A stretch of 64,000 bases of DNA from Candidatus Aminicenantes bacterium (GCA_011042725.1 DQWD01000234.1:2492-66491); one strand, 5' to 3'; shown: positions 2,573-41,064, counted from the stretch's first letter. A program made the numbers and translations. Notes: generated by a model from the sequence alone, not told the origin.

Positions 2573-2656
2573 GGGTGTCTTAGGTGGGGAAGAAGACTAA
2601 TTGATTTTTAGAGGGACTTAATGTATAAATATAACTCGATTAAAGAAGGAGAATAT

Positions 2657-6925: not shown

Positions 6926-7119
6926 TGTCCGCAGGCATAATATTGCTTGAGTTTAGTGGCTTAGTCAAGTGGCGAGTAGGTCACCATTAATGATTAATCT
7001 CCAAAGGTGAGGGCGAAAGAACAAGATTCACCTTCGAAATCCTCGGTAAAGGGGGTTTTCTTTGAGTTTTTTTGTGTTATTATTTTACCGGCCTTGGATG
7101 TAAAAATGACGGGGAGAAA

Positions 7120-10703: not shown

Positions 10704-10740
10704 TTTTATTAGTTAAACAAAAAAAATTTTGTGACCTGTA

Positions 10741-10769
10741 TTTATACCATAGAGGAATAGCCATGGCAA
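10741..10769 (-). promoter_or_regulatory. Candidate sigma70 promoter for the AMIN/beta-barrel gene
   Basis: Minus strand reads TTGCCA (10769-10764), a 17-nt spacer, then TGG-TATAAA (-10 at 10746-10741, with a TGn extended -10). This lies about 35 nt upstream of ATG 10703. Confidence 0.35.
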
Positions 10770-10805
10770 TCTTTATCTATTTAGTAGGGTTTTGAATGGG
10801 GCTAA

Positions 10806-11786: not shown

Positions 11787-12628
11787 TGCTCCATCCTCTT
11801 TTTATTCTTTTGGTTTAGGGACTTTGTTGGCGAGAGGAAAAAAGTATAAAGATTATAAAAAGTTTTCAACTCTAATTCCTCAGCTCGAGCTTGAGGAGGA
11901 ATTTTTAAATAAGTTAATCCTTCTTTGATGGTTTCAAGTGGAAAATTTGCCCCCCTGAGGTTATTGGCGAGGGTTTTTCGGCGACAAGCAAAACATTTTT
12001 TCAGGAAAGCGAGAAAATCCTTTTCCTTTTCAATAGGAAACAAAGGAGAAGATCTTTTGACAAAAGTGAGGAGAGAAGAGTACACTCGGGGAGGAGGGGT
12101 AAAAGATTGGGGCCTAATCCGGAGAACACAGTGAATTTCAAAATGATTCTGCAGGAGAATAGCTAAAGGGGCAATTTTTTTGGAACCTGGGGAAGCCAGG
12201 AAACGATTAGCCATTTCTTCTTGGATTAAGAAGACCCAAAAGGGAAAAATTGATTTATGGTTAAAAACTTTAATGATAATCGGAGAGGCAACTGAATAAG
12301 GAAGATTTCCCACTACTTTAACGACTGAAGTAGGAGAAATTTTACTGACTATTTCTTTTTGTAGATCTAGGCGTAAGAAATCGCCTTGGATAAGGGTCAC
12401 ATTAGAGGGAATAATCGATTGGAGAAACTCAGCTAAATGAGGGTCTTTTTCGATGGCTACAACTTGACTTCCATGATTAGCTAGCGCTAAGGTTAGGCTT
12501 CCTTGACCAGCTCCAATTTCGATGATTACATCTCCTGGGGAAGGATTGATTACTTGAGTAATTTTCTGAATAAGACGAGGGTTGCGGAGAAAATGTTGTC
12601 CTAAGGTTTTTCTTTTTGATCTTTTCAT
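11783..12628 (-). CDS. rsmA: 16S rRNA (adenine1518/1519-N6)-dimethyltransferase RsmA/KsgA
   Basis: 281-aa ORF with LGQHFL, the SAM-binding motif IEIGAGQGSLT and the GNLPY motif. Confidence 0.9.
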   Translation of the reverse strand: MKRSKRKTLGQHFLRNPRLIQKITQVINPSPGDVIIEIGAGQGSLTLALANHGSQVVAIEKDPHLAEFLQSIIPSNVTLIQGDFLRLDLQKEIVSKISPTSVVKVVGNLPYSVASPIIIKVFNHKSIFPFWVFLIQEEMANRFLASPGSKKIAPLAILLQNHFEIHCVLRIRPQSFTPPPRVYSSLLTFVKRSSPLFPIEKEKDFLAFLKKCFACRRKTLANNLRGANFPLETIKEGLTYLKIPPQARAEELELKTFYNLYTFFLSPTKSLNQKNKKRMEQ

Positions 12629-12645: not shown

Positions 12646-13389
12646 TTAGCTTTTTTCCGGAGAAGGGGTCGGGAAGTTTCCCAGTCTATCTTTGATAATT
12701 AGGCTCATAGCTAATGTTTCCAGAAGGATGGCCAAGTTGAGTTTTGTTTTTCCTTGGGCCCGGTCTCGAAAAGTTATGGGTACTTCTGTCATTTTTAAGC
12801 CCAAAAGATGGGCCTTGTAAAGAATTTCCAGGACGATTGAAGGGCCAATAGAAATTAAATCGTCAAGATCTAACTTTTCTAGGGCTTGGCGGTGGAAGCA
12901 GCGAAAACCAGAAGATACGTCTTTAACGGGAATTTTGAATGAGCGGCGGATATAGAAGCGTACTAACCAAGTGATCAAGCGGCGGAGGAGGTTCCGTTCA
13001 CTATCTTTGCCATCCTTCACAAAACGAGAGCCAATAACGATATCGGCCTTTTCAGTGGCTTTTAAGAGTTTAGGAATTTCTTGAGGTTGGTGCGAGAAAT
13101 CTCCGTCCATTTCAATAACAAAATCAGGCTGAAGGTTAACAGCTGCTTTGAATCCATCGATTCCGGCGGCCCCTCGACCACGTCGTTTTAGACGGATTAA
13201 AGATTTTACTCGAGGATCGTGAGCAAAAGCTTCTTGAACAATTAAACCGGTTCCGTCTGGAGAATTATCATCCACAATCAAGACCTGAAACTCATAGTGG
13301 TGGTTTAATTTAAGTATTTCCTGGATCAAGGGAATAATATTCTCCCGCTCGTTGTAAGTAGGAATCATGACTACAACCTTTTTTTTCAT
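12646..13389 (-). CDS. Polyprenol-phosphate mannose/hexose synthase-like GT2 (Ppm1/Dpm1-like, soluble type)
   Basis: 247-aa ORF with VVMIPTYNERENI, VDDNSPDGT and EMDGDFSHQP (DxD region). No C-terminal TM helices. 4-nt overlap with the upstream GT9 gene. Confidence 0.8.
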   Translation of the reverse strand: MKKKVVVMIPTYNERENIIPLIQEILKLNHHYEFQVLIVDDNSPDGTGLIVQEAFAHDPRVKSLIRLKRRGRGAAGIDGFKAAVNLQPDFVIEMDGDFSHQPQEIPKLLKATEKADIVIGSRFVKDGKDSERNLLRRLITWLVRFYIRRSFKIPVKDVSSGFRCFHRQALEKLDLDDLISIGPSIVLEILYKAHLLGLKMTEVPITFRDRAQGKTKLNLAILLETLAMSLIIKDRLGNFPTPSPEKS

Positions 13390-14489
13390 GACTCGAGAAG
13401 TGATTTAATTGCCTGGAAGACTTCTAAGGGAAGGATGGATTTCATGCACGTCATTTCAGGACAAGTTTGCTTATAGCAAGGAGCGCAAGATACACCCGTA
13501 AATAATTTAATTCCTGAATCATAGAGATCGATTTCTTGCGGACAAGTTGGGCCGAAGAGGGCCACCACTTTTCTTTTCAGGGCCAAGGCCAAGTGAAGAG
13601 CCAAAGTGTCGGAGCAGACTATTAAATCCATTTTGGCCAAGAACCCAGCAAACTCACGGAGAGAATTATTGTTTCCAGTATTGTAGACTGGGCAGGATGA
13701 TAATTTTTCTATCTGGCGGTTAAGTTGGGTTTCTCTTGGCCCTCCTAAAAGAAAAACATTTGCGTCCAGTTGATGATGAAGAAGATCAATTAATTGGACA
13801 AAGTGATCTTGGGGCCATTGCTTAGTCAGGAATTTTGTTCCTGACCCGGTGTTTAAGCCGATGTTCAGCTTGGCAGGTTTAATTCGGTGAGTTTCAAAGT
13901 ATTGATTGGCTCGTTGGCTATCCTCGTCCTGCAAGTAGAACAGATAGGGATCTCGCTGGTATTTAAAACCGGTTATTTCATGAATGATTTGTTGATATGT
14001 TTTTTGATTCTGGCGAAATTTTAAGTCGTCATCAACCCCTAGTTGAAATGCGTACTCGCTTTCGGGATTAAAAATAGTTAAATTGCCCCACCGATTAAGT
14101 CCAAAACCTTTCTTTTCCTTCGCCGGGACTGATTGAGCTAAGGCGGTGGAGATTGGTTCTTTATCGAGCGAGAGGAGCAAATCAAATTCTTGGTGTTGAA
14201 GGGACAAGACTCCTTCAAGGGAAAAAGTAACAATTCGGTCAAGATGAGGATTATGGGTTAGGAGATCAACACTTTCCTCATCAACTATCCATGTCAGGTG
14301 AGAGTCGGGGATGGCTCTTTTAATGGCGGCAACTAGAGGGGTAGTCCGGAGAACATCCCCTTGAGCCCGGCCTTTAATAATAAGAATTCGGAAAGAGAAT
14401 GGTTGGTAATAAGGGCAATCAGGGCAGAGACGCTGATAGAGACATGGTTTTTCTCCCCGAAAATAACGACAGTCATCTTTTAACTTCAA
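13386..14489 (-). CDS. Glycosyltransferase family 9 (heptosyltransferase-like) with Cys-rich N-terminal extension
   Basis: 367-aa ORF. GT9 hallmark ILIIKGRAQGDVLRTTPLVAAIKRAIPDSHLTWIVDEES, and a C-terminal CAPCYKQTCPEMTCM. The N-terminal extension carries C7, C16, C22 and C25. Confidence 0.8.
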   Translation of the reverse strand: MKLKDDCRYFRGEKPCLYQRLCPDCPYYQPFSFRILIIKGRAQGDVLRTTPLVAAIKRAIPDSHLTWIVDEESVDLLTHNPHLDRIVTFSLEGVLSLQHQEFDLLLSLDKEPISTALAQSVPAKEKKGFGLNRWGNLTIFNPESEYAFQLGVDDDLKFRQNQKTYQQIIHEITGFKYQRDPYLFYLQDEDSQRANQYFETHRIKPAKLNIGLNTGSGTKFLTKQWPQDHFVQLIDLLHHQLDANVFLLGGPRETQLNRQIEKLSSCPVYNTGNNNSLREFAGFLAKMDLIVCSDTLALHLALALKRKVVALFGPTCPQEIDLYDSGIKLFTGVSCAPCYKQTCPEMTCMKSILPLEVFQAIKSLLES

Positions 14490-14650: not shown

Positions 14651-15325
14651 TTATGGTTTTTTAGTGGCTAGATAGGCGATGTGAGGATAAGGATAACCCT
14701 GGTCTAAGGGGATAATATTGGTTTTAAAACCAACCTGGGTTAAGAGCTGAGTTATTTCCCTTTGCGAACGAAAATAAAAGTGACTTCCTAGAGTAAACCC
14801 GATGAGTTTTACGGCTAGCGTTTCCTGGACTAGATTCCAGAGATATTTCCATCGGGGCCGGGTATCCATTTCTTTAAGAATAAAAACTCCATCAGGGGAT
14901 AAACATTCATAAATTTTCTGAAACAAGTTAAGATGTTCAGAATAAGGGATGAGATAAAGAACATCAATTAGAGCAACCGCCTCAACGGGTGGATAATTAT
15001 CAGTAATGATGTTTTTGTGAAAAAAAGATAAACTCTCCAGGTTTCCCATGAGCCTTTTCGCGGCTTCTATTTTTTTCTCATCTAGATCAAAGCCGATAAT
15101 TTTTCTCGGGGAAGACCCAAAATGAAGGATCAAGGCAAACAGGCCTTGGCCGCATCCTAAATCCAGAATTACTCCCTCTTGAGGGAAAAGAGGTTCAAGA
15201 TCTATTAAGGGACATATTCTCAGTTTAATGTTTTGATAAAGGCGGTTGGGCCAAGGTTGGTGGCGATAAAATTGGATGACTTTTTCTTGTATTTTTTGGC
15301 GTTGATGAGGTTCTAGTGTTTTCAT
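14651..15325 (-). CDS. Class I SAM-dependent methyltransferase
   Basis: 224-aa ORF with the motif I sequence ILDLGCGQGLF. Its ATG overlaps the asnB stop by 1 nt (15325). Confidence 0.75.
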   Translation of the reverse strand: MKTLEPHQRQKIQEKVIQFYRHQPWPNRLYQNIKLRICPLIDLEPLFPQEGVILDLGCGQGLFALILHFGSSPRKIIGFDLDEKKIEAAKRLMGNLESLSFFHKNIITDNYPPVEAVALIDVLYLIPYSEHLNLFQKIYECLSPDGVFILKEMDTRPRWKYLWNLVQETLAVKLIGFTLGSHFYFRSQREITQLLTQVGFKTNIIPLDQGYPYPHIAYLATKKP

Positions 15326-17208
15326 TAATCCAGATAAAAGTTATACCAGAATTGAAATATTATTAAGGGCCAAAGGAGTTGGCGGTGATTATGTTTTCCC
15401 TCAAAGTGTTCATTTAGAATCTGGGTAATGAATTTCTGATTAAAAAAGCCATGTTTCTGGAGAGCCTCAGGAGATAGGATTTCCTGGACAAAGTCTTTCA
15501 ATTCATTTTTTATCCATACTCCTAAGGGAATATCAAATCCTATTTTTCGCCGCGACAATATTTCGCGAGGAAGATATGGTTCCATAGCTTTTTTCAAGAT
15601 GTATTTTGTGGTTAAACCTTTCAACTTTAGGGGAGAAGGAATTTGGTGGGCGAATTCGACAACCTCGTGGTCGAGGAAAGGAACTCGAATTTCCAAAGAA
15701 TTAGCCATGCTCATCCTATCCACTTTGACCAACAGATCGTCTTGAAGGTAAAGTTTTAAATCTAGGTAGGTAATGCAGGTGAGCTCATCTTTGGCAGGGC
15801 AATGGCTCAGATGGTAATAGATGGGAGAGTAAGGATTTTCTTCAGGGGTCAAGGCAGGGGAAAAAAGATTTTTTCTGATTTCAGGGTGGTAAGCTCCCCA
15901 CCAGATGTAATTGGCTACTTCGGGAGGATAATCAATGCCACTAATAAACTTTTTGGCTTTAAACTCAAAACTTAGTCTATTTGGAGAAGCGGGCAAGATA
16001 GAGACAATGTTTTTTATGATTTTGTTGCGGATAAGAGAAGGTAAGCGACGGAAGTATTTAGCAATTTTATAAGCTTTGTAAGTATCATAGCCGGCAAATA
16101 ACTCATCTCCTCCATCGCCAGCCAAGGCCACAGTTACGAACTGGCGAGCTAATCGGGAAATGATAAAGGTAGGAATGATAGAAGCATCAGCTAATGGTTC
16201 ATCAAGAAACTTAATTAATTGGGGGACAAGTTCTTTGACTTGCTCCGAATGAACAATGAATTCATGATGGTCAGTTTTGTATTTTTCGGCCACCAAGCGA
16301 GCATACTGAAGTTCGTTGAAACTTTCTTCTACAAAACCAATGGAGAAGGTTTTTATGGGTTCAGGGACAATCTGAGTCATCAAGGCAGTAACCGAGCTGG
16401 AATCAATTCCCCCGCTTAAGAAAACACCTAGCGGAACATCGCTAACCAGTCTTTTTCTAACGGACTCTTGGAGATTAGCTTGGAGAGCAGCAATTATTTT
16501 GGTTTGATCGGACAAGGAAAATGATTTTTTCTCGTTCGAGATGTCCCAGTATTTTTCAATTTTCCATTCCTCATTATGGGCAACTAACCGATGGCCAGGA
16601 AGAAGTTTGAATAAATTTTTAAAGATTGTTCGTGGGGCAGGAATGTATTCAAAGGCAAAATATTGATGAAGAGCATTGATGTCGATTTCCCGGGGAAAGT
16701 CACTCTGAAGAATGGCTTTAATTTCCGAGGCAAAATAAAGGTGTCTTTTATGGAAAGCATAATGAAGGGGTTTGATCCCTAATCTGTCCCGGACAAGAAG
16801 AAATAGTTTTCTAGCTTTGTCCCAAAGCGCCATAGCAAACATGCCGTTTAAGGCTTCGACAAAATCCACTCCCATCTCCTCATAAAGATGCACGAGCACT
16901 TCTGTGTCTGATCTGGTTTGAAAATTATGGCCTTTTTTTATCAGACTATTCCTTATTTCCCGGTAATTATAAATTTCCCCATTGAAAATTACCCAGACAG
17001 TTTGAGTTTCGTTGGATAGAGGTTGGTGCCCTGTCTTCAAGTCGATGATACTAAGTCTTTTCATGGCCAAGGCAACTTGGTCGTCTAAATAGTAACCCTC
17101 ATCGTCTGGTCCTCGATGATGGAGGGACTGGTTCATGGCCCTTAGTTCTTTTTCAGGCGGCGAAGAGAAGGGAAGAGAGAAGCTATAAATACCGCATATT
17201 CCACACAT
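15325..17208 (-). CDS. asnB: Asparagine synthase (glutamine-hydrolysing) family amidotransferase
   Basis: 627-aa ORF. N-terminal nucleophile MCGICGIY (Ntn GATase) and PP-loop FLSGGIDSSS. It is the first gene of a glycan operon, so it may amidate a sugar acid rather than make Asn. Confidence 0.88.
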   Translation of the reverse strand: MCGICGIYSFSLPFSSPPEKELRAMNQSLHHRGPDDEGYYLDDQVALAMKRLSIIDLKTGHQPLSNETQTVWVIFNGEIYNYREIRNSLIKKGHNFQTRSDTEVLVHLYEEMGVDFVEALNGMFAMALWDKARKLFLLVRDRLGIKPLHYAFHKRHLYFASEIKAILQSDFPREIDINALHQYFAFEYIPAPRTIFKNLFKLLPGHRLVAHNEEWKIEKYWDISNEKKSFSLSDQTKIIAALQANLQESVRKRLVSDVPLGVFLSGGIDSSSVTALMTQIVPEPIKTFSIGFVEESFNELQYARLVAEKYKTDHHEFIVHSEQVKELVPQLIKFLDEPLADASIIPTFIISRLARQFVTVALAGDGGDELFAGYDTYKAYKIAKYFRRLPSLIRNKIIKNIVSILPASPNRLSFEFKAKKFISGIDYPPEVANYIWWGAYHPEIRKNLFSPALTPEENPYSPIYYHLSHCPAKDELTCITYLDLKLYLQDDLLVKVDRMSMANSLEIRVPFLDHEVVEFAHQIPSPLKLKGLTTKYILKKAMEPYLPREILSRRKIGFDIPLGVWIKNELKDFVQEILSPEALQKHGFFNQKFITQILNEHFEGKHNHRQLLWPLIIFQFWYNFYLD

Positions 17209-17515
17209 TTTTAGAAATCCGTCTCTAATTTTAATGTAAATAGAGAAGTAATTCTAATCGAATTCCTCATTAATTAAAACCAGGCGAACTTTTTGTCCTC
17301 AATATGTTCAAGTTATCTCCAAAAATAATGCTAAAAATAATGGATAGGCAGCCAGTTAGAAATCGAGAAAAATAGAGATACATTTATGGGTAACAACCTT
17401 TTTTCATTTTTGGGAATGAGGATATGTTCTTTCCAGGTAGTGGCCATTTCAGAGTTTCCGGGGAAAAAAGTCGCTGTAGTGGGCGTGCTGATTTATGGCT
17501 TATCCCCTTTTCTTA

Positions 17516-17524
17516 TGATATAAT
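17516..17524 (+). promoter_or_regulatory. Candidate extended -10 promoter element for the B12-rSAM operon
   Basis: TGATATAAT (TGn + TATAAT) at 17516-17524, about 50 nt upstream of ATG 17574. The -35 region is weak (TGGCTT). Confidence 0.3.
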
Positions 17525-17573
17525 CCAAAACCTATTAGGGAGAGACTGAGGAAAGAAAAACTAGGATACAGAA

Positions 17574-18953
17574 ATGAAAGTTTTATTGCTAAACCCTCCT
17601 GGGGATCAATTGTACATAAGAGATTATTATTGCAGTTTTGCTTCCAAGGCTGATTATTATTGGCCACCCCAAGATCTCCTTGTTCTCAGTGGGATTCTAT
17701 TTTCTGAATTTGAAGTCATTGTCTTGGATAGTATTATCCGGAGGTTAAAGGAAGCCCAAGTTGCTGAATTTGTGGAAACCAAAAAACCGGAAGTTATTAT
17801 TTATACCACGGGCACAGCTACCCTCAAGAGTGACTTGGAATTGATGTCCAAACTCAAAAAAAGGAACAAGCAGTTGCTTATAATTGCTAGTGCCGGAATT
17901 ATGAAATTTATCGGTCAAGAATATCTGGAAAACCATCCTTTTGTCGATGCTGTTTTAACTGATTTTACTGAATTGGATATTAAGGAATTTTTAAATCAAC
18001 CAGGTAATGGGAAACAATATCGAGGAGTGATGTATCGTCATAACCAGGAAATAGTCAAGAACGTGGAAGATAACTCTAGAGACTTTTCGGTGCCCATTCC
18101 CCGTCACGAATTGTTTGACCCGCACTTATATCGTCTGCCAATTGCCGAAAGAATGCCCATTGCCGAAGTCATTACCTCCCTCGGCTGCCCTTATCATTGT
18201 GCTTTTTGTACTGCTGGGGCTTATGGATATAAGACAAGGGACATTGAAGGAGTAATTGAAGAGCTAAAATATTTATCCTCGTTGGGGGTAAAAGAAATCC
18301 TCTTTCAGGACCCAACTTTTACGATTAATACTAAAAGAGTGACGACCCTCTGTCATTTGATGCAAAAAGAAGGGCTGGACTTTACTTGGAGTTGTAACGC
18401 CGATATAAAATCAATGAATGAAGAAAAAATTAAAGCAATGAAGGCTGCGGGCTGTCATACGGTATCAGTGGGAATTGAAAGTGGCAGTGATGAAATCCTG
18501 CAAAAATATGCCAAGATGATAACTGTTGAGGATATTAGAGAGAAGGTCAGGTTAATTCGAGAATATGGCGTTCGTGTTTTAGGTTACTTTATCATTGGCC
18601 TTCCCGGAGAAGACAGACAATCTATCCTCAAGACAATTGCCTTGGCTAAAAAATTAGATTTGGATTTTGCTTCTTTTACCGTAGCTACTCCTGATGTGGG
18701 AACTAGACTAAGACAAGAAGCTCTAGCTAAGGGATGGATTGCGCCTGATGTGGATGTTTTTGACAGCACAGGTTTTCCAATTATTAAGACTGAGAACTTA
18801 ACTCCAGAGGAAGTTTGGGCTTTAAGGAGAAAAGCCGTTAGAAGCTTTTATTTTCGACCGGCCTATATATGGCGCCGGTTAAAATCATTAAGGAAATGGA
18901 AGGATGTGCAGCTAGCGGTAACCAATGCCTTAAATCTTTGGCGCAAATCATGA
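17574..18953 (+). CDS. B12-binding-domain (class B) radical SAM protein, HpnJ-like architecture
   Basis: 459-aa ORF. N-terminal Rossmann-like B12-binding region (MKVLLLNPP...VIIYTTG) and a radical SAM cluster motif SLGCPYHCAFCTAG. Its stop overlaps the next gene's start (ATGA at 18950-18953). Confidence 0.85.
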   Translation: MKVLLLNPPGDQLYIRDYYCSFASKADYYWPPQDLLVLSGILFSEFEVIVLDSIIRRLKEAQVAEFVETKKPEVIIYTTGTATLKSDLELMSKLKKRNKQLLIIASAGIMKFIGQEYLENHPFVDAVLTDFTELDIKEFLNQPGNGKQYRGVMYRHNQEIVKNVEDNSRDFSVPIPRHELFDPHLYRLPIAERMPIAEVITSLGCPYHCAFCTAGAYGYKTRDIEGVIEELKYLSSLGVKEILFQDPTFTINTKRVTTLCHLMQKEGLDFTWSCNADIKSMNEEKIKAMKAAGCHTVSVGIESGSDEILQKYAKMITVEDIREKVRLIREYGVRVLGYFIIGLPGEDRQSILKTIALAKKLDLDFASFTVATPDVGTRLRQEALAKGWIAPDVDVFDSTGFPIIKTENLTPEEVWALRRKAVRSFYFRPAYIWRRLKSLRKWKDVQLAVTNALNLWRKS

Positions 18954-19798
18954 AAAGAGTAATTGTGAATGCTGATGATTTTGGGTTGAGTAAGGGGATA
19001 AATGAGGGAATAATTAAAGCTCATCGCGAGGGAATTCTTACCAGTGCGACATTAATGGTTAACATGCCCGGTTTTGCTAATGCCATCGAAGAAGCGGCAA
19101 AGTATCCATCATTAGGCGTGGGAATTCATCTTAATGTCATCCGGGGAAAACCCGTTTTACCCCCCGAAGATATTCCTAGCTTGGTCAATAAAAAGGGATT
19201 CTTCTGGGGTAATGTTTTTCTGGTTATCCAAAGAGTGTGGGCGAGGAAAATTAAGATTAATGAAATCATTAGGGAATTTAGAGCCCAAATTGAAAAAGCG
19301 CAGCAAGCTGGATTAGCTTTAACCCATGCTGATAGCGAAAAACATTTTCATTGTTTTTATCCTGTTTTACAAAAGTTACTTCCCATGTTAAAAGATTGTG
19401 GATTGCCTAGAATCCGCTATATAAATCAAATTTGTAGTTTGAAGTCTCCAAAAATGTTTGTTCTTTCCTGGGTTGTTAATTGGGCGTGGAGGCGCTGTCG
19501 TTCCCAAGCTCAGCAACTTAAATTTCGGTTAACGGATAATTTTTTCGGCTTGTGTACAACGGGACGGATGTCCCGCTCAAATTTAATTGCCATTTTGAAA
19601 AATCTTCCTCCTGGGACTTCCGAGATAATGGTTCATCCAGGATATATTACTCCGGAAGAGATGGCGGTAACTAAAGAAACGGGAGATTATCGTCTTTGGC
19701 AAGAGAGGGAGATGGAATTAGAAGCTTTACTGGATCCCGAGTTGCCAAAAATTTTAAAGAGCAATAAGATTGAATTAATAAATTTTGGGCAGGTTTAG
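18950..19798 (+). CDS. YdjC/ChbG/HpnK-family carbohydrate deacetylase
   Basis: ORF 18869..19798. I prefer ATG 18950 (MKRVIVNADDFGLSKGINEGIIKAHREGILTSATLMVNMP), which is the typical YdjC N-terminus. Confidence 0.85.
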   Translation: MKRVIVNADDFGLSKGINEGIIKAHREGILTSATLMVNMPGFANAIEEAAKYPSLGVGIHLNVIRGKPVLPPEDIPSLVNKKGFFWGNVFLVIQRVWARKIKINEIIREFRAQIEKAQQAGLALTHADSEKHFHCFYPVLQKLLPMLKDCGLPRIRYINQICSLKSPKMFVLSWVVNWAWRRCRSQAQQLKFRLTDNFFGLCTTGRMSRSNLIAILKNLPPGTSEIMVHPGYITPEEMAVTKETGDYRLWQEREMELEALLDPELPKILKSNKIELINFGQV

Positions 19799-19799
19799 A

Positions 19800-20804
19800 A
19801 TGAAGCAAGAGAAAAATTCCCCAAGGAATCTTCAAATTTCGATAGTCGTACCTTTTTTTAACGAAGAAGCTAATATCAAAGAATTATATCAGCGGTTAAA
19901 AAGGGTGTTAGATCGATTGCAGTTAGCCTATGAATTGATTTTTGTTGATGATGGCAGTACTGATCGGACCCCGACAATTCTCCACCAGCTCTATGAAAAT
20001 GATGAACGAGTTAAGATTATTCGTTTAAGAAAAAATTTTGGGCAAACGGCTGCTTTGCAAGCCGGCTTTGATTATGCTCGAGGCGAGATTATAATCTCTA
20101 TGGATGGTGATCTTCAACATGACCCGGAAGATATTCCTCGCTTCTTGGCTAAAATGGAGGAAGGATATGATGTGGTTAGTGGTTGGAGAAAGAAACGGGT
20201 GGATAATCTTTGGTTGAGAAGAATTCCGTCCTTAGTGGCTAATCGGATCATGAAATGGCTGTCCGGAGTAGAAATACATGATTTTGGCACAACGTTTAAG
20301 GCTTACAAGAAAGAAGTTATCAAGGGAATTCATCTGTATGGAGAGCTTCATCGTTTTATCCCTGCTCTCACCAGTCGCGCCGGAGTGAAAATAACAGAGA
20401 TTCCTATTAAGAATGTCGTTCGCCAAAAAGGAAAGTCAAAATATGGCCTTTCCCGCGTGCGAAGGGTATTTTTTGATTTGATAACGGTTAAATTCATAAT
20501 CAGTTTTATTGACCGACCTCTCCAAGTATTTGGCTTAATCGGGGTGATATTTGGAGGCCTGGGTTTTATTGTTGCCTTGGTGTTGACTATCGGCTTTTAT
20601 TTTTTGGGATGGTCCATTCGTGAGAATCTAGGCAACTTGATTTTTAGTGTCTTTTTAATGATGATGGGCCTTCAATTTATAATGACTGGATTGGTGGCTG
20701 AAATTCTCTCGCGAGTGTATTTTGCCACCCACAAGGTTAAGATTTATTCGGTGGAAAAAATCTTGTCAAGGGAAGCTTCCTTGCCGGAATCAGAGGAAGA
20801 TTAG
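19800..20804 (+). CDS. Polyprenyl-phosphate glycosyltransferase, GT2 (GtrB/ArnC/LgmA-like, two C-terminal TM helices)
   Basis: ORF 19785..20804, with ATG at 19800. Motifs ISIVVPFFNEEANI, FVDDGSTDRT and SMDGDLQHDP. It has C-terminal hydrophobic helices. Paralog of 28707..29687. Confidence 0.85.
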   Translation: MKQEKNSPRNLQISIVVPFFNEEANIKELYQRLKRVLDRLQLAYELIFVDDGSTDRTPTILHQLYENDERVKIIRLRKNFGQTAALQAGFDYARGEIIISMDGDLQHDPEDIPRFLAKMEEGYDVVSGWRKKRVDNLWLRRIPSLVANRIMKWLSGVEIHDFGTTFKAYKKEVIKGIHLYGELHRFIPALTSRAGVKITEIPIKNVVRQKGKSKYGLSRVRRVFFDLITVKFIISFIDRPLQVFGLIGVIFGGLGFIVALVLTIGFYFLGWSIRENLGNLIFSVFLMMMGLQFIMTGLVAEILSRVYFATHKVKIYSVEKILSREASLPESEED

Positions 20805-20815
20805 GCAGTCAAGAA

Positions 20816-22930
20816 ATGGGCTCTTTGGGCAATTGGTGGCTATCCAAAGGTGAACGGGTGGCCATGACAGTTTTTTTGGGCTTATTGATAGTTTTTGTTA
20901 TTTTTTATTTTAGCCGCCATTTAGCTGATCTTTCTTTGTGGATGGATGAGGGCTTTCATACTATCGCCACTCAAGAGATTTTGGCTCATGGTTATCCCCT
21001 TTTTCCCTCCGGGCATATTTACTATAAGGCCATCCTTTATACTTACTTATTGTCTTTGTTTTCCTTGTTATTTGGTTTTAATTCTTTTACTTTGCGTCTG
21101 GTTAGTGTTTTAGCGACAGCGGCAGCTATTCCTTTTATTTTTGCTTTCACGCGTAAGTTATTCAATAAAATTATAGCTGTTGGCTGTGTTGTTTTATTTG
21201 TCTTTTCTCTGTGGGTAGTGGAGAATGCTCGCTTGGCGCTTTATTTTAGCCCCCTCCTTTTTATTTGTATTGTTGGTTACTATTTCTTTTACCTGGGCTT
21301 TTTTGAAGAAAAAACAAAGTATAAGATTTTGACTACTGTGGTTTTTCTCTTGGCTCCTTTGGTTCACCAGTTGGGAATGAGCCTCTGGTTTTCGTTTTTA
21401 GCCTTGTTTTTTATAAGAGGCGCGGGGCGATTTTTTAAGAAAGATGTGCTTTTAAGCTTTGCCTCGATAAGCTTGTTTTATTTTTTAATTCAACTTCATG
21501 AGTTTTTCTTCTGGAAAGTGGGCTATGTCTACGAAAAAACTGAATTAAGCTTCCAGGGGATGATGGATTATTTTTTTTCGGGATTTTCTCTAGGCTATTT
21601 TAAAGAGCTTTTTCGGAGTTTTCCCGCGATGAGCTTGTTTGTTTTAGGGGGAACTTTTATTGCTTTGGTTAAATTTATTCCTCGCCCCTCTCCAGAAAAT
21701 CGTGGACATTTTTCCAGGTTTAATAATAATTGGTTGTTTGTCGCCTTATGTCTTTTTTTTCCCCTTATCTTTCTTGGATTTTTCCGTACCCATGTTCAAC
21801 CTCGTTATCTTTATCAACTGTATCCTCTCTTTCTTATTCTTTTTGTGGTTACTGTTTATGTTCTTAGTCAAGCAGTTGCCCAGCTGATGACCTTTTCGTT
21901 TAGTCTTAAAAATCCTCTCTTTCAAAAAATGATCTTGGGGCTTGTCTTTATTTTTTCCCTTTGGATGTTTAGTGATCAGGTGAGTCTGGCTGGAGTAAAG
22001 CGAGTTGTCAATCGCTATTATAACGATCCCATCCCCACCGACACCATAACTCGATCAGGTCGGTTTGAACATTATGACCATCAAGGTGTTGGAGAATTCG
22101 TTAAGCATCATCTTCAACCGGATGATATTGTGGTGGCTATCCATGTTGTTTTCCAGTATATCTATGTGGGACGAGTGGACTACTGGCTCTGGTCTGGAGG
22201 GCCCGGGACTTGGGATGCGTGGGAAAAGACTCCAGAAGGCTGGAAAGATTTTTATGTCGGGGCTAGATGGATTAATAATCTTCAGGATTTAAAATCTTTG
22301 ATTGAGAACAATTCAGGGCGAAGGATTTGGATTATTACTTCTCCTTCTCTTTATCGCCTTGACCACATAAACCACGAAATTAGAAAGTTTATTCAGCAGG
22401 ATCCTCGGAAATTGGTTTTTTTGGGAAAGGATGGTTTATCGGGAGTGTATTTATGGTCTGACACCCAAAGTGAGTTGACTCAAGATTATCATTCTATCGA
22501 GGGGGAATGGATTCCCTTGCGGGAAGGCAAGATAGTTTATTCCCCTTTAGCTTCCAAAAGGGCAGAGCTTTTTCTTTCTCGCCAGAGAAATAAAAGGAGG
22601 ATTTTTAAGTACCAGCTACCCTATGATCTGCCTCCAGGGAGATATCAAGTAGTCGTAAAATACAAAATTTCGGAGGCGGAAAGGGAACCCTGGCTTGGTC
22701 TTTCTATCCGAACTAAAACTCGGAGAGCTGTTGCTGAGCACCGATTTTATTTACATCCTTCCTCTGCAGCTAATAATTATTCTAAGGTAACAGGATCGTT
22801 TCGCTTAGATAGCCAAGCTAAGTTAGATTTTCTTTTTCTCCAAGAGGCAGGATACTCTTTGACTATTGATTGGATTAATATTATTGATGAACAAAAGGGG
22901 CACGTTTGGTCCCCTTACTTGACTTTTTAG
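20816..22930 (+). CDS. ArnT/PMT-type GT-C glycosyltransferase (second copy) with C-terminal soluble domain
   Basis: 704-aa ORF that is polytopic over the first ~390 aa. Loop motif LSLWMDEGFHTIATQEIL (the DE motif of GT-C). The C-terminal ~310 aa are non-membrane. Confidence 0.75.
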   Translation: MGSLGNWWLSKGERVAMTVFLGLLIVFVIFYFSRHLADLSLWMDEGFHTIATQEILAHGYPLFPSGHIYYKAILYTYLLSLFSLLFGFNSFTLRLVSVLATAAAIPFIFAFTRKLFNKIIAVGCVVLFVFSLWVVENARLALYFSPLLFICIVGYYFFYLGFFEEKTKYKILTTVVFLLAPLVHQLGMSLWFSFLALFFIRGAGRFFKKDVLLSFASISLFYFLIQLHEFFFWKVGYVYEKTELSFQGMMDYFFSGFSLGYFKELFRSFPAMSLFVLGGTFIALVKFIPRPSPENRGHFSRFNNNWLFVALCLFFPLIFLGFFRTHVQPRYLYQLYPLFLILFVVTVYVLSQAVAQLMTFSFSLKNPLFQKMILGLVFIFSLWMFSDQVSLAGVKRVVNRYYNDPIPTDTITRSGRFEHYDHQGVGEFVKHHLQPDDIVVAIHVVFQYIYVGRVDYWLWSGGPGTWDAWEKTPEGWKDFYVGARWINNLQDLKSLIENNSGRRIWIITSPSLYRLDHINHEIRKFIQQDPRKLVFLGKDGLSGVYLWSDTQSELTQDYHSIEGEWIPLREGKIVYSPLASKRAELFLSRQRNKRRIFKYQLPYDLPPGRYQVVVKYKISEAEREPWLGLSIRTKTRRAVAEHRFYLHPSSAANNYSKVTGSFRLDSQAKLDFLFLQEAGYSLTIDWINIIDEQKGHVWSPYLTF

Positions 22931-22960
22931 ATTAATTGAGAAGAGTTTTTGGTGTCGAGA

Positions 22961-23728
22961 ATGCCCCAAGATTTCAAAGGTAGCTTGCAAAAAGAATTAT
23001 TGGATCAGCGAAAATCTTCTTCTTCTAAATATCGTCTTATCTTTATTGGTCAAAAGAATTTGCTCTATTTAGTTAAATATGAACTTATTATGATGGCTAT
23101 CTCTTGGATCCCGGGAGCATTGGGATTTTTCTTGAGGAAGATTTTTTATCCTCGATTATTAAACAAAGTCGGCCGCGGAGTAGTTTTTGGGAGAAACATC
23201 ACCATTCGCCATCCCCACAAGATAGTCATTGGTGACCATGCTTTTATCGATGATAATGTTGTTCTTGATGCTAAAGGCGAGGATAACGAGGGGATTATCA
23301 TTGGTAATAATGTCTATATTGGGCGCAATACGATTATCAGTTGTAAAGAGGGCTCAATTTTTATTGATGATTATTGTAATATTTCCGCTAACTGTTCTTT
23401 GCTTTCGGAAACAAAATTGGGGTTGGGTAAATATTGCTTTTTGGCGGGACATTGCTATCTTGTGGCCGGGGGAAATCATAGTTTTGATCGCCGCGATGTA
23501 CCCATCATGTTTCAACCTTCTTTATCACGGGGGGGGATTAAAATTGAAGATGATGTGTGGTTGGGGGCAGGAGTGATTGTTTTGGACGGAGTGGAGATTC
23601 AGCGGGGGTGTGTGGTGGGAGCAGGTTCGGTGGTTATCGATTCTTTGCCTGAGTTTTCGATAGCTGTCGGTACCCCGGCCAAAAAGATTAAATTAAGAGG
23701 CAACGAAGTTCATTCAAAAAAAGGGTAA
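22961..23728 (+). CDS. Left-handed beta-helix (hexapeptide repeat) acyl/acetyltransferase
   Basis: ORF 22949..23728 (TTG); an ATG lies at 22961. Hexapeptide repeats are present (IGDHAFIDDNVVLDA, IGNNVYIGRNTII, IEDDVWLGAGVIVLDGVEIQRGCVVGAGSVV). Confidence 0.8.
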   Translation: MPQDFKGSLQKELLDQRKSSSSKYRLIFIGQKNLLYLVKYELIMMAISWIPGALGFFLRKIFYPRLLNKVGRGVVFGRNITIRHPHKIVIGDHAFIDDNVVLDAKGEDNEGIIIGNNVYIGRNTIISCKEGSIFIDDYCNISANCSLLSETKLGLGKYCFLAGHCYLVAGGNHSFDRRDVPIMFQPSLSRGGIKIEDDVWLGAGVIVLDGVEIQRGCVVGAGSVVIDSLPEFSIAVGTPAKKIKLRGNEVHSKKG

Positions 23729-26528: not shown

Positions 26529-27527
26529 TCAAGAATGGCCATCCTGCTCATGGAGCCAATGGTGAGCCAAGTACCAGTCTATGGTTAGCCTTGAACCCGT
26601 GTGAAAATCAGTTTGGGGCGAATAGCCCAAATTCCGCTGAGCTTTGGAGCAATCCAGTGGTTTTGGGTGGGCAAAGAAGGCTAGTTTTCCGGGTGTAAGG
26701 GGCGCTTCCCGGTGAAAAAAGCGGAAAACTTGATCGAAAAACCAAGCCAAAGGAAGGAGAGGAGAAAGGGGTAAAGAAAAGGAAGGAAGTTTCCGGTTTA
26801 AGTGGGAAGCAATAGTTTCAGCCATTTCCCGGACGGTTAGAACTTCCGGTCCGGTTAAATGATAGATTTCTCCTCTCTCCCCTTTTTCAAGAGCGAGAAG
26901 AGTACCGCGGATTAAATCGTGGATAAAAACAGGTGTTTGTTGAGCTAACCCCCCACCCACCAGCAAGAATCTGCCTTTAGCAATGGCTTGGAAAAGTTTA
27001 AAGGTGCGTTTGTCTTCGGGGCCATAAACCCAGCCTGGTCGGATGATGATTATCTCCAATCCCCGGTGGCTAAAATTTAAAGCCTCTTTTTCAGCTTGGA
27101 ATTTGGTCTGGTCGTAGAGAGTCTGTGGATGGGGTGAATAGTCTTCGGCAGCAACTTGGCCAGGATTAACTTTTCCGATAACTCCTGCTGAACTAAAAAA
27201 AACGAGTCGATCTAACTTGGCTTTTTGAGCAGCCTGGAGGAAATTGATTGTCCCTTTCAGATTTACTTCCCAGAACTGCTGGGGAGGAATTAAAGAGCCT
27301 CCCAAAGCTGAGGCTAAGTGGAAGCCAACTTGACAATCCTTTAGATTTCTCTCTAAGAGGTCTTGGTTGGCTAAATCCCCCCTGATTATTTCAATTTTTC
27401 CTTGTCTTAAATCAAGGGGGAGAGGATGCTTATGGACGAGAACTTTGACTGCCCATCTATTGTGGAGTAGTTGACGAACAAGATGGCGTCCGATGAACCC
27501 TGAGGCTCCGGTGACAAATACTTTCAT
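26529..27527 (-). CDS. NAD-dependent sugar epimerase/dehydratase (extended SDR)
   Basis: 332-aa ORF with MKVFVTGASGFIGRHL (GxxGxxG) and YxxxK in LYDQTKFQAEK. 4-nt overlap with the upstream GT4 gene. Confidence 0.85.
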   Translation of the reverse strand: MKVFVTGASGFIGRHLVRQLLHNRWAVKVLVHKHPLPLDLRQGKIEIIRGDLANQDLLERNLKDCQVGFHLASALGGSLIPPQQFWEVNLKGTINFLQAAQKAKLDRLVFFSSAGVIGKVNPGQVAAEDYSPHPQTLYDQTKFQAEKEALNFSHRGLEIIIIRPGWVYGPEDKRTFKLFQAIAKGRFLLVGGGLAQQTPVFIHDLIRGTLLALEKGERGEIYHLTGPEVLTVREMAETIASHLNRKLPSFSLPLSPLLPLAWFFDQVFRFFHREAPLTPGKLAFFAHPKPLDCSKAQRNLGYSPQTDFHTGSRLTIDWYLAHHWLHEQDGHS

Positions 27528-28699
27528 TTAGCTGCCCTTGGTGAGGTTGTTGCTTTTTTCAGTATTTCTTTCATCTTTTTTAGATAGCGCTCATAGGTGA
27601 ATTCCTCGACGGCCCAGTCTTGGGCTTGTTGGGCAAGTTTTTTAGCCGCTGGATTTTCCAGAGCAAAGAGCAAACCTTGGGCTAAGGACTCGGGGGTAGG
27701 AGAAACAAGAATAGCCAAATCATTATTAAGCAGTTGAGTATGAGTCCAAAGGTTAGTCGCCACCAGAGGTTTTCCTGATTTCAAAAATGAATAAATTTTT
27801 AAAGGTGTATTAGTGCCGGAAAGGCGAGGAGAGACGAGGACATCAGCGATGGTTAAATAAGCAGGGATTTTTTCGGGCGGGACTTGCCCAATGAAAATCA
27901 CTTGTTCTCCTATTCCTAGCTGCTCAGCCATTTCCTTCATGGCTTCAACTTCTTCTTCAGAGCCTCCAACCAGCAACAAGCGAGCTTTCTTAGAGCTGAG
28001 ATTGGCCATTGCCCGCAAGAGGAGGGGGATGCCTTGATGGGGAAAAAAATTGCCCGTATAAAGAATTATTTTTTCCCCCTGGGAAGCATATTGTTTCTTG
28101 AAATCGTTTCCCACCGAGGATGAAGGTTGCGGATATTCGAAGTCTAGAAAGTTTTCCAGGAGAATAGCTTTCTCAGCCTGGCCTTTTTCCTCTACTGTTT
28201 TCAGAAGATCAGGGCAAATAACGATAATGGCCTGAGAATAACGCAGCACCCAGTTTTCCAATTTAGTAAAGATCGACTTCAGCAGTCGAGAACGGGAAAA
28301 ATTAAAGTTGGTCAATTGTTGGGGAAGGCTCGAATGCATGTCGTAAAGGTGGGGGATTTTTTTTAGCTTGGCTAAGAAGATTCCCCACCAGGAGGCTTCT
28401 TCATGGGTGAAGATGAGGTCGTAGGGATGAGTTAATAATTTAAATAGAGACAAGAAGAAAAGCAAGATATCAAGAGGAATTTTGGCCATTGAAGGGCCAA
28501 CTTTAATGCTTTTTAACCCTAATATATTAGGGACTCGATAAATTTTTAATCGGGGAAGAACCTTGTTTTCACCGAGAGGATAAGTCAATAAATCAACTTC
28601 ATGTCCCAGCTCGGATAAAGCCTTAAGTCGAAAATAAACGCTAATGGGTGTTCCTCGCGGCTGGAAAAACGGTTCGGGGGCAATCATCAAGATTTTCAT
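27524..28699 (-). CDS. Glycosyltransferase family 4 (GT-B fold)
   Basis: 391-aa ORF with typical GT4 organisation. The C-terminal half carries LLLVGGSEEE, PRLSGTNTPLKIYSFLKSGKPLVATN. Confidence 0.8.
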   Translation of the reverse strand: MKILMIAPEPFFQPRGTPISVYFRLKALSELGHEVDLLTYPLGENKVLPRLKIYRVPNILGLKSIKVGPSMAKIPLDILLFFLSLFKLLTHPYDLIFTHEEASWWGIFLAKLKKIPHLYDMHSSLPQQLTNFNFSRSRLLKSIFTKLENWVLRYSQAIIVICPDLLKTVEEKGQAEKAILLENFLDFEYPQPSSSVGNDFKKQYASQGEKIILYTGNFFPHQGIPLLLRAMANLSSKKARLLLVGGSEEEVEAMKEMAEQLGIGEQVIFIGQVPPEKIPAYLTIADVLVSPRLSGTNTPLKIYSFLKSGKPLVATNLWTHTQLLNNDLAILVSPTPESLAQGLLFALENPAAKKLAQQAQDWAVEEFTYERYLKKMKEILKKATTSPRAAK

Positions 28700-28706
28700 G
28701 TTTTGC

Positions 28707-29687
28707 TTAGTCTTGGGGAGGGTTGGAGTTGATGCCGACTATTTCCCGGATGTAGTAAATTTTCTTCTGGGATGATTCATGGTAGGTACGAACAAGCAGT
28801 TCGGCTAAGAGGCCGATAGAAATGAATTGAATCCCAATGACAATGAGCAGAATGGAAAGAAGAAGTAAAGGACGATTGCTGATCCCTTGCTTAAGAATGA
28901 GACGAATATAGGTGAGGTAAAGACCAATGCCTCCTCCAAACAAGCCGCTTAGTAAGCCAAGGGTGCCAAAAATTTGCAGAGGCCGGGTTGAATAACTTAG
29001 AAGAAATTTGACCGTCAAGAGGTCAAGGATGACTTTGAAGAATCGCCAAAAGCTGTACTTGGAATGGCCGTATTTTCGAGGCCGATGATGGACGGGGATT
29101 TCAGTAATTTTCACTCCAATGTGACTAGCGATAGCGGGGATGAAACGGTGAAGTTCGCCGTAGAGTTTGATATTTTCCACTACTTCACGCCGAAAGGCTT
29201 TCAGAGTGCAACCATAATCATGAAGTTTAACTCCGGTGATCAAGGAGATAAGCCAGTTAGCGATGGTGGAGGGCATTCGCCGCGATAAAAAAGGATCCTT
29301 TCTGTTTTTGCGCCACCCATTGACCATGTCATAGCCTTCCTCTAGCTTTTCCAAGAGGCGGGGAAAATCATGAGGATCATTCTGAAGGTCGGCATCTAAA
29401 GAGATGATGATTTCACCTTGGGCATGGTCAAATCCAGCGGAAAGAGCCGCTGTTTGGCCGAAATTTTTTCTTAATCTAATGAGTTTTACCTGGGGGGAAT
29501 GTTTTTTGATTTCTAAAAGGCGATGAAAAGAGCCATCATCAGAGCCGTCGTCGATATAAATTATTTCGTAAGGAAGGCCTATTTTTTGGCAGGCGGCGGA
29601 AATCTGTTCGTGGAGTTCTGGCAAACTTTTTTCTTCGTTGTAAACAGGAACCACAATGGAAAGTAATTTGTTGTCTTTTTCGCTCAT
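28707..29687 (-). CDS. Polyprenyl-phosphate glycosyltransferase, GT2 (GtrB/ArnC-like), paralog of 19800..20804
   Basis: ORF 28707..29696 (TTG); an ATG lies at 29687. Motifs LSIVVPVYNEEKSL, YIDDGSDDGS and SLDADLQNDP. Two C-terminal TM helices. By eye, about half of its residues are identical to the other GT2. Confidence 0.85.
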   Translation of the reverse strand: MSEKDNKLLSIVVPVYNEEKSLPELHEQISAACQKIGLPYEIIYIDDGSDDGSFHRLLEIKKHSPQVKLIRLRKNFGQTAALSAGFDHAQGEIIISLDADLQNDPHDFPRLLEKLEEGYDMVNGWRKNRKDPFLSRRMPSTIANWLISLITGVKLHDYGCTLKAFRREVVENIKLYGELHRFIPAIASHIGVKITEIPVHHRPRKYGHSKYSFWRFFKVILDLLTVKFLLSYSTRPLQIFGTLGLLSGLFGGGIGLYLTYIRLILKQGISNRPLLLLSILLIVIGIQFISIGLLAELLVRTYHESSQKKIYYIREIVGINSNPPQD

Positions 29688-29791
29688 CCTGGTCAATATA
29701 ACATATCCAAAGCAGACGGTAAATATATAGCCCTACCCTATCTCTAGGCTGGTTTGACTTTAGGTCGGGGGTAGACTAAAATTCAGTCACC

Positions 29792-41042: not shown

Positions 41043-41064
41043 AAAAAGAGGAGGCAATAACTGG

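Follow-up and report, generated by a model that had tools for sequence, protein, structure and literature searches.

The 64,000-nt window analysed here, one strand of a Candidatus Aminicenantes bacterium genome (GCA_011042725.1 DQWD01000234.1:2492-66491), contains a cluster of five tightly packed, co-directional genes whose products on balance probably form a carrier-lipid aminosugar pathway, in which an amino sugar would be tailored on its carrier lipid before a GT-C-type glycosyltransferase passes it to an envelope glycan. Three of the products, a GT2 glycosyltransferase, a YdjC-family deacetylase and the GT-C enzyme, show the traits expected of a polyprenyl-phosphate aminosugar route, as a first-pass annotation made from the sequence alone had proposed and as profile and structure matches now bear out. 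A fourth is a radical S-adenosylmethionine (SAM) enzyme of a large unnamed family, and its linkage to the other three is conserved across phyla. The five genes are:

17574..18953, plus strand: radical SAM enzyme with a Rossmann-like (B12-binding-like) N-domain
18950..19798, plus strand: YdjC-family de-N-acetylase (Pfam YdjC match)
19800..20804, plus strand: GT2 glycosyltransferase of predicted ArnC/GtrB type, acting on polyprenyl phosphate, with a C-terminal transmembrane (TM) hairpin (hidden Markov models and solved structures)
20816..22930, plus strand: ArnT/PMT-like GT-C with a periplasmic alpha/beta domain and a C-terminal beta-sandwich resembling a carbohydrate-binding module (CBM) (PMT_2 and predicted fold)
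22961..23728, plus strand: LbH acyltransferase, WcaF/WbbJ-like (Hexapep), a probable O-acetyltransferase and lineage-specific accessory

Reading of the open reading frames (ORFs) confirms all five genes at the positions first noted, together with their junctions. The radical SAM and ydjC genes share an ATGA overlap (18950-18953), and gaps of 1 nt (TAG 19796-19798, ATG 19800), 11 nt (TAG 20802-20804, ATG 20816) and 30 nt (TAG 22928-22930, ATG 22961) follow ydjC, the GT2 gene and the GT-C gene, respectively. Pfam and NCBIfam profile searches agree with the domains originally assigned to the five products. Public gene callers place the start of ydjC 54 nt earlier (300 instead of 282 residues), but the ATGA start is favoured because the HpnK and YdjC models both align from residue 1 of the 282-residue version. 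The arrangement is beyond chance, the identical five-gene order being repeated in at least nine other Aminicenantes genomes and its core in other phyla. The cluster region of the window is also identical to contigs of the Aminicenantes metagenome-assembled genome (MAG) GCA_029932685.1 and of several metagenome assemblies.

Enzymes of the cluster

The deacetylase carries NADDFG at its N-terminus and scores 231.8 bits on Pfam YdjC (PF04794, cutoff 29.7) over residues 3-270, which by sequence places it in the YdjC family. On the HpnK model (NCBIfam TIGR03473) it reaches 221.0 bits, the cutoff being 232.6, and it is 29.0% identical to Caballeronia HpnK. The GT2 protein (Glycos_transf_2, 133 bits in Pfam) matches the ArnC model (NF007986) with 204.6 bits over residues 12-325, below the equivalog cutoff of 529, so that its donor sugar is not assignable. 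It scores 184 bits on the PgfS model and aligns with the solved structures of ArnC (9hwj, 187 bits, residues 12-323), GtrB (5ekp, 151 bits, residues 9-320) and DPMS (5mlz, 91 bits). With the motifs FVDDGSTD and MDGDLQHD and two hydrophobic C-terminal TM helices (246-264 and 281-299) it shows the traits of the ArnC/GtrB/DPMS class, a GT-A domain bearing DXD motifs together with juxtamembrane and C-terminal TM helices, and these sequence features assign it as a full-length ArnC/GtrB-type polyprenyl-phosphate glycosyltransferase. BLAST finds no match between it and HpnI.

The GT-C protein has about 12 hydrophobic segments and scores 33.4 bits on Pfam PMT_2 (gathering score 26.1). A sequence-only search of the PDB gave no match; its similarity to solved structures is seen by fold search, in which the AlphaFold2 model (pLDDT 85.1) retrieves ArnT first (5f15/5ezm, E 5e-9 to 2e-8), with Emb, AglB and STT3 next. 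Residues D44 and E45 of its WMDEGFH loop are invariant among 27 homologues. Domain, fold and this acidic first periplasmic loop identify the protein as an ArnT/PMT-type (GT83/GT39) enzyme. Residues ~595 to 691 form a beta-sandwich that matches CBM4/6/35 modules by fold. This sandwich is absent from ArnT and argues weakly for a glycan as the acceptor; the earlier suggestion had been transfer to lipid A/core or a periplasmic protein, and the CBM-like domain points instead to a glycan and not to lipid A specifically. The LbH protein belongs to the hexapeptide-repeat family (Hexapep 52.4 bits, Pfam cutoff 27), lies below the cutoff of the WcaF model (NF007797, 95.4 bits against 192) and scores 78 bits on WbbJ. 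Re-N-acylation of the sugar by this enzyme, also part of the earlier suggestion, is not indicated: WcaF/WbbJ-type O-acetyltransferases are closest, and the gene is restricted to Aminicenantes loci (nine of those compared below, and none of 51 distant loci).

The radical SAM enzyme matches Pfam Radical_SAM with 103 bits, its CPYHCAFC motif comprising C205, C209 and C212. The B12-binding domain (PF02310) scores 30.4 bits, slightly below the gathering score of 32.1, and a match to it is precomputed for 47 of the 120 closest homologues. Among named families HpnJ scores highest (NCBIfam TIGR03471, 187.9 bits, equivalog cutoff 577.6), ahead of AprD4 (NF033070, 145.3 bits, cutoff 500), PhpK (128 bits) and BchE (125 bits); the enzyme falls below the cutoffs of both HpnJ and AprD4, and its identity to the annotated Caballeronia HpnJ is 29.5%. 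By fold the order is different. The AlphaFold2 model (pLDDT 83.6), in which the N-domain is Rossmann-like, has as its top PDB match AprD4, over the full length (6fd2, TM-score 0.75/0.76, E 2e-27), a structure solved with the substrate paromamine bound and outranking the cobalamin enzymes TsrM, MgmA, OxsB and TokK. AprD4 is also the best PDB sequence match (119 bits, 22-23% identity). Because AprD4 does not bind cobalamin (PMC12931638), the cobalamin dependence implied by the label 'B12-type' is unproven. A single locus (L093) hints at the opposite: in an Omnitrophota MAG (GCA_037134795.1, 105-6652) cobU, cobT (DBI_PRT), cobS and a TonB-dependent receptor gene immediately precede, in the same orientation, a string encoding a GT2-methyltransferase fusion, the radical SAM enzyme, YdjC and GT-C. 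Of the initial description of an HpnJ-like B12 radical SAM protein, the choice of HpnJ as closest named family is retained; a closer likeness to HpnJ is not supported, and the B12 part is unproven.

Sequence comparison assigns the enzyme to a large unnamed family that is sister to HpnJ and lies outside both HpnJ and AprD4. YIRDYYCS and YYWPPQDL, a pair of N-terminal motifs specific to the family, delimit a family-invariant loop (YIRDYYCS...YYWPPQDL, residues 13-35 of the window enzyme) and retrieve 137 relatives from species-representative genomes. The best 150 clusters of relatives, at 50% identity, all score at least 284 bits, nearly all of them over the full length. A quick neighbour-joining (NJ) tree, which carries no support values, places HpnJ as nearest outgroup of the family as a whole. 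Members are present in Aminicenantes, Omnitrophota, Planctomycetota, Clostridia, Desulfobacterota, Bacteroidota and DPANN archaea, and are currently annotated as 'BchE', 'YgiQ' or 'B12-binding radical SAM'.

Family searches among the genes of the 64-kb window revealed no squalene-hopene cyclase (SQHop_cyclase), no HpnH and no other hpn family, in keeping with the initial statement that the window holds no hopanoid gene. In a published survey squalene-hopene cyclase, HpnH, HpnP and HpnR are found in none of seven Aminicenantia genomes (bioRxiv 10.1101/2025.07.29.667474, Table S5). We rejected an hpn locus on the unlikeness of the GT2 to HpnI, the absence of hpn and shc genes from the 64 kb and the radical SAM score far below the HpnJ cutoff. 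A gene for an LPG_synthase_TM membrane protein lies 33 kb from the cluster, by M23 and S41 peptidase genes (56542-57480, minus strand), and no link to the cluster is claimed; in the hpn locus of Caballeronia, members of this family are encoded beside hpnI and hpnK.

Conservation and extent of the module

The window proteins were compared with all ORFs of 80 related loci, 29 of them Aminicenantes-like and 51 distant. Among the 29, YdjC, the GT2 and an AsnB-like amidotransferase are each found in 15, essentially the same loci where contigs permit, a methyltransferase of 224 residues (MT224) in 12 and the LbH protein in nine. The ydjC gene adjoins the radical SAM gene in 15 of these loci and also in loci of Omnitrophota and Planctomycetota. 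Three arrangements occur in Aminicenantes: a divergent one, as in the window; a single string encoding the radical SAM enzyme, YdjC, GT2, AsnB and methyltransferase (L008); and a third in which the radical SAM and methyltransferase genes face those for AsnB, GT2, YdjC and GT-C (L032-L034). That the neighbourhood stays while gene order shuffles argues for functional coupling. In a Planctomycetales locus (L082) genes for GT2, methyltransferase, radical SAM enzyme, YdjC and GT-C are contiguous and co-directional, and the core module is present also in Omnitrophica (L061) and in metagenome contigs (L092, L093, L094 and L095). The GT-C gene directly follows ydjC in L082 and in each of these four contigs. 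The radical SAM gene is thus co-conserved across phyla with its YdjC, GT2 and GT-C neighbours, the point on which the first-pass annotation had staked its reading beforehand.

Gene fusions tie the components more closely. The GT2 and the methyltransferase form a single polypeptide in L091, L092 and L093, and the family member P0321 joins an MT224-like domain to the radical SAM enzyme itself. Two further members, a fusion of the radical SAM enzyme with GT4 (P0391) and one with a preceding epimerase of the short-chain dehydrogenase/reductase (SDR) type (P0350), indicate that the family works on carbohydrates. Altogether the partners in P0321, P0350, P0371, P0391 and P0392 are a class I methyltransferase (twice), an NAD-dependent sugar epimerase/dehydratase, GT4 and a flavin amine oxidase. 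In L096 a CE4 (ArnD-type) deacetylase replaces YdjC, a non-orthologous displacement that would fit a pathway in which a lipid-linked sugar loses its N-acyl group, and the GT2 is fused to GtrA. An energy-coupling factor (ECF) transporter is encoded upstream in this locus.

Distant relatives of the radical SAM enzyme frequently adjoin other GT-C-type enzymes (YfhO, GT87 and PMT_2), and a large membrane protein with at least seven TM segments is encoded within 6 kb in 33 of the 51 distant loci. In profile-profile comparison with the alignment of the window GT-C, the neighbour families c23 (94.5%) and c9, the second GT-C family (97.1%), match. The comparison was non-significant for c18 (membrane and TPR), c25 (YfhO), c26 (GT87) and c37, and for this reason homology of all polytopic neighbours to the window GT-C is not claimed.

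The conserved unit extends upstream of the five genes, across a divergent intergenic region, to two genes that the first-pass annotation had not included:

14651..15325, minus strand: MT224, class I SAM methyltransferase (Pfam Methyltransf_23/25/31), a probable pathway member
15325..17208, minus strand: AsnB-type glutamine amidotransferase (Asn_synthase and GATase_7), a probable accessory tailoring enzyme
17209..17573: divergent intergenic region of 365 bp between the asnB-like and radical SAM genes, with presumed promoters

In the 12 Aminicenantes-like loci that have it, the MT224 gene lies within 6 kb of the radical SAM gene. Full-length homologues (33-37% identity) are encoded between the GT2 and the radical SAM enzyme in L094 and form the methyltransferase domain of the GT2 fusions in L091, L092 and L093, and MT224 also matches the methyltransferase fused to the radical SAM enzyme in P0321 (27% identity, E 4e-14). 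On these sequence relationships MT224 is probably a member of the pathway. The AsnB-like protein (Asn_synthase 367 bits, plus GATase_7) has an intact Cys2 nucleophile and scores 642 bits on the model of the XrtA/PEP-CTERM exopolysaccharide (EPS) amidotransferase, whose cutoff is 817. Its gene is found in essentially all YdjC-bearing Aminicenantes loci, in the three different arrangements. Homologues adjoin radical SAM enzymes of the family in two Nanoarchaeota contigs (L056 and L066), and one is present in L091 at 42% identity; the gene probably belongs to the unit. The unit would therefore be larger than the 'five-gene operon' originally delimited, since the divergent MT224 and AsnB-like genes co-vary with the module and, in other lineages, the methyltransferase shares a polypeptide with either the GT2 or the radical SAM enzyme.

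A regulatory role of the divergent region is presumed. Scans of 14.4-24.3 kb for consensus promoters (23 against 21.5 expected) and terminators (11 against 11.1 expected) returned background numbers, which have no bearing on operon structure. At gathering thresholds the window matches no Rfam family, which leaves the radical SAM gene without a cobalamin or SAM riboswitch ahead of it; nor does the window contain tRNA genes.

Proposed pathway and competing explanations

All the chemistry that follows is deduced from the gene content, folds, co-conservation and fusions described above. At the cytoplasmic face of the membrane the GT2 would, as its family suggests, move an N-acetylhexosamine, most likely N-acetylglucosamine (GlcNAc), from a nucleotide sugar onto polyprenyl phosphate, and YdjC would then strip the N-acetyl group to give a polyprenyl-phosphate-linked hexosamine, as NaxD and LgmC do. 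Still at the cytoplasmic face, the radical SAM enzyme would perform radical chemistry on the lipid-linked glucosamine-type ring and MT224 would methylate the same intermediate, which in Aminicenantes the AsnB-like amidotransferase and the WcaF-like acetyltransferase may decorate further. After flipping, the ArnT-like GT-C would pass the tailored sugar to a periplasmic acceptor, which the CBM-like domain suggests to be a glycan, whether lipopolysaccharide (LPS) core, O-chain or another polysaccharide. A radical SAM enzyme that requires the YdjC product fits this scheme, because HpnJ, whose substrate is bacteriohopanetetrol (BHT)-glucosamine (PMC13459092), and AprD4 both act on a glucosamine (GlcN) ring produced by GlcNAc transfer and de-N-acetylation.

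A ring-preserving radical reaction is favoured since the donor of the GT-C must stay a glycosyl phosphate. C-methylation leads the candidate reactions, although it falls well short of probable by itself. An AprD4-like deoxygenation or dehydration and some other reaction, such as epimerisation or oxidation, come next, both rather unlikely and to the same degree, and ring contraction is the least expected. The borderline B12 domain, the cobU-cobT-cobS genes of L093 and the aminoglycoside precedent, in which a B12 radical SAM C-methylase is paired with a class I N-methyltransferase, hint at methylation; the AprD4-like fold and the SDR fusion hint at dehydration and reduction.

Several observations weigh against this pathway. 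In ten Aminicenantes loci, here called group B (L016, L017, L021, L022, L024, L025, L027-L029 and L031), the genes for YdjC, the ArnC-like GT2, AsnB, MT224 and LbH are absent within 10 kb of the radical SAM gene. Group B loci occupy the same ftsK-proximal region and keep the GT-C orthologue, the second GT-C, a Methyltransf_11 gene, a Trm112p-methyltransferase and ftsK, and their radical SAM enzymes (around 10001-11370 in most loci) are 56-60% identical to that of the window and nested among the others in the tree. The radical SAM enzyme may not depend on a de-N-acetylated substrate, or in group B the genes may have become unlinked. At 35-41% identity the gene most often found right beside the radical SAM gene encodes a GT9 GT-B enzyme (23 of 51 loci, against 5 of 51 for YdjC); these GT9 neighbours are genuine (Pfam 62-100 bits) and often lie within arrays of further B12-type radical SAM paralogues. 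Moreover, the window cluster has no evident flippase gene, both donor sugar and acceptor are predictions from sequence, the chemistry attributed to the radical SAM family is drawn from analogy with its relatives, and the tree was built by a fast distance method (NJ, no bootstrap).

Several of the distant loci (L040, L042-L054, L079-L086 and L096, at 35-41% identity) contain arrays of up to five B12-type radical SAM paralogues, together with GT9, flavin amine oxidases, TPR membrane proteins, and YfhO or GT87, and some lie in DPANN archaea (Iainarchaeum, Woesearchaeota and Nanoarchaeota), which have no LPS. The safest generalisation would be that the family works in envelope glycan assembly beside users of polyprenyl-phosphate sugars, with the window enzyme's YdjC-linked subclade as one well-defined version of that role.

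The exceptions lend some weight to an explanation we regard as unlikely, in which the radical SAM enzyme acts elsewhere, on a nucleotide sugar, the polyprenyl carrier or a cytoplasmic acceptor precursor, and is merely co-regulated with GT-C systems. Group B retains the radical SAM enzyme, a methyltransferase and two GT-Cs with no YdjC or GT2 within 10 kb, the GT9 GT-B partners of distant members use nucleotide sugars, fusion to an SDR epimerase/dehydratase is typical of nucleotide-sugar chemistry, and the family reaches DPANN archaea. What this would leave unaccounted for is the tightness of the linkage to ydjC, often overlapping or within 100 nt and repeated in three phyla, as well as the fusions of methyltransferase to both GT2 and radical SAM enzyme and the CE4 deacetylase that stands in for YdjC in L096. 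Less probable again is a lipid head-group pathway resembling HpnIJK or calditol synthesis, with a modified aminosugar or aminocyclitol on a resident lipid, polyprenyl phosphate or another, as the end product and the GT-C a separate matter. The nearest named relatives of the radical SAM enzyme and YdjC are indeed hopanoid head-group enzymes, such radical SAM enzymes build lipid head groups in bacteria and archaea, and three loci (L008, L014 and L018) have the radical SAM and YdjC genes, with or without that for GT2, and no adjoining GT-C. Yet the GT2 resembles ArnC and GtrB from end to end and has no relationship to HpnI, the GT-C gene directly follows ydjC in the five loci named above, and the GT2-GtrA fusion of L096 implies flipping of a carrier-linked sugar.

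The first-pass annotation had envisaged an HpnJ-like contraction of the carrier-linked glucosamine to an aminocyclitol, which the GT-C would move to lipid A, core or protein. HpnJ is, as described, the best-scoring named family (188 against 145 bits) and the nearest outgroup, YdjC scores near the HpnK cutoff (221 bits against 232.6), and the order GT2, (methyltransferase), radical SAM, YdjC in Omnitrophota and Planctomycetota resembles hpnI-J-K. This sequence of events is nevertheless very improbable, as on the mechanisms proposed for HpnJ and Cds (PMC13459092) C1 would become a carbocyclic carbon bearing a phosphodiester that is not anomeric, and such a product should be unusable as a donor for the GT-C, which is among the most persistently linked partners; the identity of 29.5% to HpnJ, far under the family cutoff, also speaks against it. 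The pathway we favour, tailoring on the carrier lipid followed by GT-C transfer, would keep the sugar a glycosyl donor.

Relation to known systems

The frame of this pathway is known. The Arn system (ArnC/ArnD/ArnT), which adds 4-amino-4-deoxy-L-arabinose (L-Ara4N), the Bordetella LgmA/LgmC/LgmB proteins (GlcN), of which LgmC is a YdjC-type deacetylase, and Francisella/Acinetobacter FlmF2/NaxD/FlmK (galactosamine, GalN) fill the same three roles as the GT2, de-N-acylase and GT-C of the window. These systems have no radical SAM enzyme and no methyltransferase, whereas in the window module both are co-conserved and even fused. The window GT-C differs from those of the lipid A systems in its extra CBM-like domain, and a link to lipid A is not indicated. 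Addition of amino sugars in the periplasm from undecaprenyl phosphate (Und-P), by Arn, Lgm and NaxD/Flm, is one of the main ways in which bacteria come to resist polymyxin and antimicrobial peptides and to alter their recognition by innate immunity. NaxD has been described as a YdjC-family deacetylase acting in GalN addition (bioRxiv 10.1101/2025.07.24.666669).

With HpnI/J/K the window shares the logic of GlcNAc transfer, YdjC deacetylation and radical SAM action on a GlcN ring, but hpn loci have no following GT-C, and the window has a GT-C and no hpn or shc genes. AprD4, the radical SAM 1,2-diol dehydratase of apramycin C3'-deoxygenation, likewise acts on the GlcN ring of paromamine and has the same size and Rossmann-like N-domain as the window enzyme; its substrate is a soluble pseudodisaccharide of antibiotic biosynthesis, in contrast to the carrier lipid proposed here. 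The SDR fusion P0350 recalls the AprD4/AprD3 dehydratase-reductase pair, while the window operon has no adjoining reductase. A glycosyltransferase, a deacetylase, a radical SAM enzyme and an N-methyltransferase together form a pattern seen in aminoglycoside biosynthesis, for example GenK/GenD1 with GenN. An architectural parallel may be drawn with the three-component systems of a GtrB-like GT2, a flippase and a GT-C, including CsbB/YfhO and the pentofuranose systems (PMC11127046). In these the cytoplasm produces a polyprenyl-phosphate monosaccharide, which after flipping is attached to a finished glycan by the GT-C, a general architecture that the window module shares. Members of the radical SAM family adjoin YfhO, GT87 and a GT2-GtrA fusion, as in such systems.

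To our knowledge the tailoring of polyprenyl-phosphate monosaccharides is hydrolytic or redox only (ArnD, NaxD and DprE1/E2). The full-text literature searched contains no description of a radical SAM enzyme in a YdjC, ArnT or undecaprenyl context, which agrees with the first annotator's awareness of no such envelope pathway. While three-component modification and the aminosugar triads of lipid A are established, the radical SAM enzyme embedded in them and its dedicated methyltransferase are new to that literature. More broadly, and with chances we put a little short of even, a large radical SAM family may tailor polyprenyl-phosphate-linked amino sugars together with a dedicated methyltransferase, so that GT-Cs would install a C-methylated, deoxygenated or rearranged sugar on envelope glycans. 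If so, three-component glycan modification would gain a new enzymatic layer and uncultivated phyla a source of new envelope sugars. Such a step would bring to general envelope biogenesis a radical SAM chemistry of carbohydrates otherwise seen in antibiotic and hopanoid pathways, give a function to a widespread family and predict new surface sugars in Aminicenantes, Omnitrophota and Planctomycetota. Comparative genomics supports the module well, and its small size, four or five genes of which some are fused, makes it directly amenable to testing in a heterologous host.

Other glycan genes of the window

Further genes for glycan synthesis surround the cluster. A second ArnC-like GT2 gene (28707-29696, minus strand), whose product scores 262.7 bits on the ArnC model, above the cluster GT2, lies beside genes for a GT4 (27524-28699, minus strand) and an SDR epimerase/dehydratase (26529-27527, minus strand). 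A second PMT/PMT_2 GT-C is encoded at 4496-6925 (minus strand), between genes for paralogous BNR_4/GH43-like proteins (2621-4495 and 7072-9309). Judged by family, the genes at 26529-29696 and 4496-6925 could supply components of another carrier-lipid sugar system. A GT9 heptosyltransferase-like gene (13386-14489, minus strand), encoding a Cys-rich N-terminus (CRYFRGEKPCLYQRLCPDCPYY), adjoins a short GT2 gene (12646-13389, minus strand). Orthologues of both, at 43-58% identity, stand beside members of the radical SAM family in a deltaproteobacterial (L045) and a planctomycete (L072) locus, and that of the short GT2 alone does so in a Woesearchaeota contig (L048); the pair (12646-14489) may be part of the same wider glycan system.

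On the far side of the short GT2 gene, a SPASM-domain radical SAM gene (10806-11786, minus strand) lies directly downstream of ksgA (11783-12628). It is followed downstream by a gene for a 465-residue protein (9306-10703) with no confident Pfam match and a weak hit to an outer membrane protein (OMP) beta-barrel, part of which recurs as an ORF of ~200 residues beside the GT-C in group B loci. Finally, at about 38800-41600 on the plus strand, a Wzm/Wzt-type ABC exporter pair (ABC2_membrane; ABC_tran and Wzt_C) is followed by a cytidylyltransferase-like gene. From its family assignment this pair could indicate an ABC-transporter-dependent polysaccharide, a candidate acceptor glycan.

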